Below the pieces are notes generated by a model that had not been told where the DNA came from, searched no databases, and was given only the letters and a program-made list of their open reading frames with translations. A program made the translations under genes and the position numbers. Below, piece after piece: positions 36,133 through 36,313 of a stretch of 64,000 nt of DNA (positions are counted from its first letter, which is position 1; each line of letters opens with the position of its first letter). Source of the stretch: Mobula hypostoma (lineage: Eukaryota); the NCBI RefSeq assembly GCF_963921235.1, contig NC_086097.1, positions 31,560,001-31,624,000 of the forward strand, given 5' to 3'.

Positions 36133-36313
36133 TGCAACAGCACCGAGTACAGCCTCTCCTCCAGTTTGTTCTCGCTGGCCGCCTTGGCACTGCCCGCCGC
36201 CGCCCCCGCCGAACTCGAGCCCGAGGCCGTGCCGGCCTCCAACCGCGGCTGCTTCTTCGAGCTCGGCCCTTCCTTAGGCGGAGGCCTTGAGCAGGTCCAG
36301 GCATACGGTGCAG
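36133..36313 (-). pseudogene. Circularly permuted fragment of CYHR1/ZFTRAF1 N-terminal coding region
   Basis: Minus strand encodes CTVCLDLLKAS (36312-36280), then in another frame [13 protein letters not shown]...[22 protein letters not shown] (36278-36138). The recalled CYHR1 order is [25 protein letters not shown]. Confidence 0.8.

Follow-up and report, generated by a model that had tools for sequence, protein, structure and literature searches.

Capture of host exons by non-autonomous retroposons, as in SVA_F1, and permuted pseudogenes derived from circles are both already known. We describe here a related but different case from Mobula hypostoma. The DNA analysed, hereafter the window, comprises 64,000 nt of assembly GCF_963921235.1 (contig NC_086097.1, positions 31,560,001-31,624,000, forward strand). 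In the last intron of a C1-tetrahydrofolate synthase gene it carries what is very probably one copy of a short interspersed element (SINE)-type retroposon, called SINE-Z here, and inside that copy lies a circularly permuted piece of the first exon of the genome's own ZFTRAF1 (CYHR1) gene. The genome searched throughout was the 3.48-Gb genome to which the window belongs, and the comparisons with published systems refer to the accessible parts of the papers cited.

In SVA_F1, which took up exon 1 of MAST2, and in the chimpanzee subfamily pt_SVA_D6, which took up exon 1 of STK40, the captured G+C-rich first exons can act as internal promoters (PMC6139936). The Mobula element resembles both in that a non-autonomous family driven by a long interspersed element (LINE) took part of a G+C-rich host first exon and then amplified, and in that the acquired piece has an end at or beside the 3' end of exon 1. 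However, in the two SVA subfamilies, the exon stands at the 5' end of the element in its normal order, spliced to an acceptor of the element, and 84-94 copies are present, whereas in Mobula the piece is internal, permuted and joined to itself at the exon end, and the copies number hundreds to thousands. Promoter activity has been shown for MAST2 in SVA_F1; for the ZFTRAF1 module it could be proposed only by analogy.

Pseudogenes derived from circular RNA (circRNA), such as those of mouse circRFWD2, share with the Mobula family a non-colinear host junction fixed in the germline in multiple copies linked to a retroelement, in that case MMERVK10C (PMC4897178). In the circRFWD2 pseudogenes, entire exons (exon 6 to exon 2) are linked through annotated splice sites and the carrier is a long terminal repeat element, whereas here both halves come from a single first exon, the junction misses the donor by 4 nt and the carrier is SINE-type. 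For germline extrachromosomal circular DNA (eccDNA), a length peak of ~180 bp (175-185 bp) has been reported, together with G+C richness, a genic origin and junction microhomology in only about a third of cases (PMC10581685). The ZFTRAF1 module, with its 178 bp, high G+C content, gene-rich origin and junction without microhomology, is like such mononucleosome-sized eccDNA or microDNA. Those molecules were, however, observed as free circles, and heritable re-insertion into a transposon master copy with subsequent amplification is not described in the accessible text of that report. The composite build of the element, its modules common to more than one family and its simple-repeat tail recall the chondrichthyan SacSINE1 and CmiSINEs, for which module exchange by recombination or template switching was proposed (PMC5499810). 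These SINEs have tRNA-derived heads and conserved Deu/CORE domains, whereas no tRNA-like head was detectable here, the two being compared by description.

The element itself was not described in the literature found, by a search not aimed at ZFTRAF1 or Mobula hypostoma, as far as the accessible parts of the sources go. The same holds for a single-exon, one-turn, nucleosome-sized permutation within an amplified SINE-type element. The unusual part is the family, as all of its detectable members carry one turn of the 178-bp host first-exon segment in permuted form.

A permuted piece of ZFTRAF1 exon 1

An initial annotation made from the letters of the window had pointed to a CpG-rich island about 100 bp before the last coding exon, read on the minus strand as two parts of CYHR1/ZFTRAF1 joined out of frame. 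This description was accurate. Positions 36133-36313 form a stretch of 181 bp with 68.5% G+C, 18 CpGs and a CpG observed/expected ratio (o/e) of 0.87, compared with 0.26 in the 2-kb flanks, and 100 bp separate its 3' end from the start of the last coding exon, downstream at 36033. On the minus strand the stretch reads CTVCLDLLKASA up to a stop codon in one frame and gives a ZFTRAF1-like reading of 48 residues one base on. When the second frame was used in a protein search, two named ZFTRAF1/CYHR1 proteins of cartilaginous fishes were retrieved, the best match being to residues 55-112 of a sawfish protein (E 8.4e-9 against 5.8 billion proteins, 62% identity over 93% of the query). The protein order given in the annotation is the same in both public proteins and in the genome's own exon 1.

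The true ZFTRAF1 gene was located by a protein search of the genome as four exon matches on contig C5, with exon 1 (residues 1-130) in the locus L022. Comparison with L022 by blastn gave two high-scoring segment pairs in swapped order, just as the annotation had foreseen. Together they cover window positions 36137-36314 on the minus strand, at 92-96% DNA identity and out of frame:

36275..36314, minus strand: piece A of the ZFTRAF1 module (39-40 bp; 3' in the parent, 5' here), matching L022 1552-1514 at 36/39 bases
36137..36274, minus strand: piece B of the ZFTRAF1 module (reading EGPSSKK...; 138 bp; 5' in the parent, 3' here), matching L022 1691-1554 at 132/138 bases, E 6e-61

Piece A encodes 12 residues. 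Its first base, which in the family majority is parental G1553, has mutated from G to A in the window copy. In the parent, piece B is followed directly by piece A and each is single-copy. Neither a tandem duplication nor the order found in the window, both of which had been named beforehand as possible objections, was seen at ZFTRAF1. Exon 1 ends in CTACCAG/gtacag (the slash marks a boundary or junction here and below), four bases past the end of piece A. The module derives from the genome's own ZFTRAF1 exon 1 and is circularly permuted relative to it. A search by blastn of 13 kb covering the four ZFTRAF1 exon loci found no match to the element beyond the 178 bp. An origin from spliced messenger RNA was considered and rejected: the start of exon 2, TGCACGAATGG, has no counterpart in the element, which rules out as template a mature messenger RNA running past exon 1.

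In the family majority the module measures 178 bp (40 + 138), which is the length of the rotated parental segment L022:1691-1514, and differs from it at only 3 of the 178 positions (175/178 identical). Its outer ends, ...CTTGGGC/GCTGCACC... and ...GTGCTGT/CGCAAGATCG..., fall between the adjacent parental bases T1554 and G1553, with 0 bases lost or repeated, and neither end matches the flanks of the element. The inner junction, ...CCGCCTA/AGGAAGGG..., joins parental A1514 to A1691. The arrangement is therefore that of a circular permutation, with outer ends that are adjacent in the parent, parental ends that are joined inside, and a length of one period. Microhomology at the closure, which had been raised as one possibility, amounts to 0 nt, a value that speaks neither for nor against an origin from eccDNA. 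The TGCA remarked upon at both outer ends is present in the window copy but is not ancestral. The first base of the 3' flank is C in 17/24 copies and T in 5/24 including the window, and most contig depth at 36136 also carries C; with C in the family majority at this junction, the TGCA at the 3' end of the window module is a CpG-to-TpG change.

The closure precedes the exon-1 donor CAG/gtacag by 4 nt. A product spliced from this donor to the internal AG would read ...CTACCAG/GAAGGG, and its CC is absent from 24/24 aligned copies and from 100/100 of the pattern matches listed. The back-splice suggested in the annotation was thus well placed in that the junction adjoins the exon-1 donor, but the junction stops 4 nt short. 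It does not coincide with a splice donor and acceptor, as that of a circRNA pseudogene would, although an AG does precede the putative acceptor position. The parental segment, with 71% G+C and a CpG o/e of 0.91, sits on the downstream margin of a CpG island of ~600 bp; G+C content falls from 73% to 36% at the border between exon 1 and the intron. Its length close to 180 bp and its origin in G+C-rich genic DNA are those expected of eccDNA or microDNA.

The SINE-Z family

The ZFTRAF1 module is part of a larger repeat. We conclude with good confidence that positions 36072-36644 are one copy of a ~573-bp SINE-type, LINE-dependent retroposon, of which the module is a fixed internal part. The features of this copy, including its target-site duplications (TSDs), are as follows:

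36645..36653, minus strand: upstream TSD copy (TGGATCAGT), read directly from the sequence
36072..36644, minus strand: probable full-length copy of the SINE-type non-autonomous retroposon SINE-Z, ~573 bp, from genome searches and copy alignment
36510..36638, minus strand: 5' inverted repeat or long hairpin, from RNA folding
36398..36539, minus strand: ~140-bp module common to a second SINE family, F2, with blastn matches of 107-108/144 (74-75%) to L004:1116-1253 and L032
36072..36136, minus strand: 3' unique part with the remnant of an (ACTG)n tail, from the alignment of 24 copies
36063..36071, minus strand: downstream TSD copy (TGGATCAGT, the same 9 bases), right after the element tail, read directly

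Genome searches returned the element in large numbers. With 251 bp around the stretch as the query, 40/40 scored places matched at 91-94% identity, from at least 979 first-look candidates, and the 5' part of the element gave at least 3129 such candidates, with matches starting together at window ~36640. The ZFTRAF1 protein gave at least 1234, and 98 repeat copies at residues ~55-113 were found besides the 4 true exons. Scored copies were 88-94% identical across the genome searches. We then compared 24 fetched and aligned copies including the window copy, 23 of which were distinct for TSD reading. The 3' end is fixed at window ~36070, and 9/9 copies fetched by the 5' part are full-length to that end; those fetched via the middle part have 5' starts that vary between element positions 32 and 238. 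The copies carry (ACTG)n tails, and flanking direct repeats of 7-12 bp were clear by eye in at least 11 of the 23 distinct copies. Other copies end in ...CCCACTGACTG(ACTG)n and the window copy in ...CCCACTGATT; within the window, this copy holds the only occurrence of the 15-mer tail motif. TSDs of variable length, a fixed 3' end with a simple-repeat tail and 5' truncation are the marks of LINE-mediated target-primed reverse transcription, and the family is short, non-coding, dispersed and of high copy number, as SINEs are.

The first ~130 nt of the element form a long hairpin, the 5'-most ~30 nt being reverse-complementary to the beginning of the shared module. The RNA fold of 36440-36643 has an energy of -101.3 kcal/mol (z -4.04), and 0/200 shuffled sequences folded as well. 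The shared module is followed by a unique part of ~85 bp, then by the ZFTRAF1 module and finally by a 3' part of ~65 bp. The consensus by majority has 567 bases, with 64% G+C and a CpG o/e of 0.98, and the window copy has an o/e of 0.78 compared with 0.26 in its flanks. Copies differ from the majority by 1.8-3.2% at non-CpG sites and by 10-19% at CpG sites; the window copy differs at 31/562 sites (5.5%), 17 of which are CpG sites. With thousands of CpG-island-like copies, the family is a mobile source of CpG-rich DNA.

We determined how far the module extends through the family by searching for exact flank motifs with a set gap, a pattern that would miss an older ancestor of greater divergence. 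At a gap of 165-190 bases, 339 copies with a full-length insert were found, and a gap of 15-164 gave 19 copies, all with internally deleted modules. A gap of 0-14, corresponding to an element without the insert, gave 0 matches genome-wide, as did reversed-pattern controls. The 25-base 5' flank motif had 408 matches, and 100/100 of those listed are followed by piece A, either whole or with deletions. A 24-mer spanning the parental B-to-A joint, allowing at most 2 mismatches, has a single occurrence in the 3.48 Gb, which is ZFTRAF1 exon 1 itself, so no copy has the parental order or more than one turn. The presence of the permuted module in all copies examined places the permutation in the family founder, once and before amplification, and not at this locus.

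A sub-variant lacks 13 bases at the inner junction (...CCCAAGG/AAGGG...), with at least 5 cases among the 100 matches listed (for example G000:C1:57922471, C1:107157289, C1:245575072 and C2:236883930). The loss is consistent with slippage between the repeats CCCAAGG and CCTAAGG. Many copies have open frames of 122 aa, but coding potential was rejected. The 102-aa open frame of the element matches no Pfam family, and non-CpG changes in the module at codon positions 1, 2 and 3 (17/972, 9/742 and 19/717) show no clear codon-position signal. The frame is also G+C-rich, and the open frames are consistent with chance survival in young copies.

The second family, F2, is a 465-bp SINE with an (AG)n tail and TSDs. 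It has at least 1964 first-look candidates, with copies 92-95% alike, and was seen at L004:1060-1460, at L032:1501-1965 and in L033-L040. Only the ~140-bp central module is common to F2 and the ZFTRAF1-bearing family. In L004, the F2 copy itself carries an inserted copy of the ZFTRAF1-bearing element.

Insertion history and host gene

Contigs of four public runs were aligned to window positions 35700-37000: run X1 from organism A, which may be the assembled sample and is thus not independent, X5 from organism B, X12 from organism C, and a further run, X9. Organism A bridges both ends of the element with 0 differences (X1 records 1 and 8), and so does its close relative B, with 3 and 6 differences (X5 records 16 and 23). 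Mis-assembly, a concern raised with the initial annotation, is excluded by these bridging contigs in so far as short-read contigs allow. In organism C, which is more distant (about 5-9% in the flanks), a 648-nt contig (X12 record 9) joins 36069 directly to 36659. The empty site that the annotation proposed to look for in a related species therefore exists, though what is absent is the whole element. The 589 bp lacking are accounted for by the element and one copy of the TSD, together with some 7 bases that are either lost or diverged. A, B and C all contain the family at high depth, with contigs across the module junctions among its sequences. The family with its module is thus older than the split between A and C, and this site, filled in A and B and empty in C, received its insertion after that split and before the split between A and B. 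In run X9 (guessed to be RNA), record 31 covers window 36496-36759, and with it the 5' junction of the element, with 0 differences; this contig could come from a retained intron or pre-messenger RNA, or from DNA in the library.

By its domain matches the host gene is a C1-tetrahydrofolate synthase of the MTHFD1 type, with MTHFD1 and MTHFD1L both fitting. Exon matches to FTHFS (PF01268) follow one another in order on the minus strand, at window 42767, 50121, 53537, 56322, 58696 and 63513 and further upstream. The two matches that bound the intron are:

35944..36033, minus strand: last coding exon of the host C1-tetrahydrofolate synthase gene with its stop codon, PF01268 positions 527-556 of 556, E 1e-05
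42767..42952, minus strand: next FTHFS match upstream (model positions 470-531), G000:C1:31602767-31602952, 68.2 bits

The element lies in the last intron, of ~6.7 kb, the far side of which is marked by the second of these matches, and has the same (sense) orientation as the gene. The acceptor AG of the terminal exon is at 36035-36034, with ~28 nt between it and the downstream TSD, and inspection by eye found a branch-point-like GTAAC and a pyrimidine tract kept 3' of the element copy. CpG-island-like copies this near to acceptors may affect splicing or local methylation. Further FTHFS exon matches, forming a second set on contig C22 (G000:C22:89825134-89877150), presumably represent a paralogous C1-tetrahydrofolate synthase gene.

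Just 3' of the host stop codon, window 35700-35875 is another repeat of very high copy number, with a summed contig depth of up to 4x10^5 in organism A, similar values in B and C, and hundreds of loose ends. A minisatellite at 9836-12227 consists of about 88 copies of a 27-28-bp unit with 88-90% matches, and is so poor in T on the plus strand that all three minus-strand frames are open for more than 2 kb. At 430-2460, on the minus strand, a G+C-rich frame of 677 codons is free of stops; at E<=1 it had no Pfam match, nor did it contain a tandem repeat scoring at least 100, and it could be a large exon of a neighbouring gene or a chance open frame.

Origin of the permuted module

The comparisons show that a segment of the ZFTRAF1 CpG-island first exon was taken up once, in rotated order, into a retroposon master and then amplified with it. 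For the route we propose the following. A segment of 178 bp, exactly one turn, would have closed between parental ...GTCTA and AGGAAGG... and re-opened between ...GCTGT and GCTGCACC.... The linearised circle would then have been joined without microhomology into the master copy of the retroposon, and the module copied passively with every retrotransposition, one copy reaching the last intron of the C1-tetrahydrofolate synthase gene by target-primed reverse transcription. As for the nature of this circle, it may have been eccDNA of mononucleosome size; an intra-exonic circRNA that a reverse transcriptase turned into DNA is less likely. From the junctions, a circular intermediate behind the permutation seems rather probable. 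A single exact period is automatic if a circle is linearised and ligated, but is a coincidence of about 1 in 178 if the breakpoints are independent, which favours the circle. The size of 178 bp, the G+C richness and the position at the edge of a CpG island tip the balance toward eccDNA over circRNA, and we regard DNA as the likelier form of the circle. A nucleosome edge at the drop in G+C content would plausibly explain a closure near the donor, in our view. The full sequence of events, in which a nucleosome-sized ZFTRAF1 circle (eccDNA or intra-exonic circRNA) re-entered the germline inside a retroposon master and was amplified to thousands of copies, is put forward tentatively, as a scenario with somewhat less than an even chance of being correct.

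The initial annotation had assumed a simpler event, in which a free circle (eccDNA or microDNA, or a reverse-transcribed circRNA) opened within the Cys-Cys codons and integrated here as a unique insertion of ~180 bp. It was right about the origin in ZFTRAF1 exon 1 and about the permutation, both of which are real, and a relative with an empty site does exist. The direct integration at this locus is what fails. The 181 bp sit inside a 573-bp repeat that has its own TSDs, the identical permuted module recurs in 339+19 pattern-matched copies, the empty site of organism C lacks 589 bp and not 181 bp, and the TGCA ends are a secondary feature. The divergence of this copy from the majority (31/562 sites) also argues against the locus as founder. 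This explanation is hardly credible any longer, and the locus itself is an ordinary transposon copy, which is deflationary for the idea of a unique circular insertion in an MTHFD1 intron. Equally little is to be said for an assembly artefact or a chance resemblance, as contigs from two organisms bridge both junctions and the match to the parental exon reaches E 6e-61 in blastn. If the element were instead derived from a DNA transposon, as a miniature inverted-repeat transposable element that captured the module by gap repair, the 8-9-bp TSD of the window copy and the strong inverted repeat near one end would be accounted for. This is very improbable, however, as that repeat is internal to the 5' 130 nt and not terminal at both ends. 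Nor do the other features fit such an element: TSD length varies (7-12 bp), the 3' end is fixed and carries an (ACTG)n tail, and 5' truncation occurs at many points.

The two remaining alternatives concern the permutation itself. It could have arisen without any circle, by serial template jumps of a LINE reverse transcriptase between two adjacent fragments of one ZFTRAF1 RNA or along a structured RNA with close ends, or by a B-A-B-A tandem duplication, in the master copy or in a retrocopy, followed by loss of the outer parts. Template switching is the accepted route by which SINEs gain modules (PMC5499810), non-colinear junctions can result from reverse transcription through open-ended structured RNAs according to Dong et al. 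(PMC4897178), and all three junctions lack microhomology, as those of template jumps may. An origin of this kind is nonetheless unlikely, as it leaves to coincidence a module of exactly one period (178/178 bp) with nothing lost or repeated at its outer ends, and 0 copies genome-wide have the parental-order joint or two turns. The second alternative keeps the circle and makes it a circRNA, formed by back-splicing of the exon-1 donor to a cryptic AG/G acceptor inside exon 1. A reverse transcriptase switching from the element RNA and back to it would have gone round this circle for a single lap, and 2 nt (CC) would have been lost at the junction. The closure 4 nt from the true donor CAG/gtacag, the AG that stands before the base preceding the parental start of piece B, and the resemblance between ...CCTA-AG-GAAGGG in the element and the predicted ...CTACCAG/GAAGGG speak for it, as do a branch-point-like CTAAC and a pyrimidine run seen by eye ~35 nt upstream and the precedent of mouse circRFWD2, which was amplified with MMERVK10C (PMC4897178). 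We consider it a rather improbable course, since the splice product matches the junction in 0/24 aligned and 0/100 listed copies. First exons, moreover, have no upstream acceptor and a cryptic one inside the exon would be needed, the sharp fall in G+C content at the exon end offers a nucleosome-edge explanation for a breakpoint close by, and it would go unexplained how the enzyme came to enter and leave at one nucleotide in the absence of microhomology.

Several observations weigh against the SINE-type assignment or against the circle, and they have to be set beside the proposal of a nucleosome-sized circle taken up by the retroposon master. The element shows no head derived from a small RNA: ARAGORN found 0 tRNA genes, the window copy had 0 Rfam matches at E<=1, and in 5 further copies Rfam at this threshold gave none inside the element, its sole rows falling below gathering scores and outside the elements. 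With no RNA polymerase III-type head detected, the term SINE applies in a broad sense only, hence "SINE-type", although CpG decay could hide such a head. No partner LINE ending in ...CCCACTG(ACTG)n was identified. An ancestral element without the module was not found either, so the sequence before insertion, and with it the blunt joint, is a reconstruction. Among 23 copies, non-CpG divergence from the majority is 60/3134 (1.9%) in the module (36137-36314) compared with 203/6489 (3.1%) in the flanking parts (36072-36136 and 36315-36644), a difference that is unexplained. The circle itself was not observed, and the argument from the exact one-turn length is one of parsimony. Germline re-integration of eccDNA into a transposon master copy is not documented in the accessible parts of the literature found. 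For the circRNA form of the circle, a closure displaced by 4 nt from the donor and the failure of the predicted junction to appear in any aligned or listed copy count as well.

The captured CpG-rich module might help transcription of the element, by analogy with the first exons taken up by SVA families; hints in this direction are that all detectable members carry it and that its divergence is somewhat below that of the flanks. If the proposed origin is true, this SINE family would be a heritable, datable record of the re-integration of a circle, and one that scatters CpG-island-like DNA through the genome, including beside splice sites. If the circle was DNA, the family would be evidence from nature that small eccDNAs are able to re-enter the genome of the germline. 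As the junctions are kept in hundreds of copies and the parent gene is at hand, the joining mechanism is open to study, and outgroups could decide the matter.

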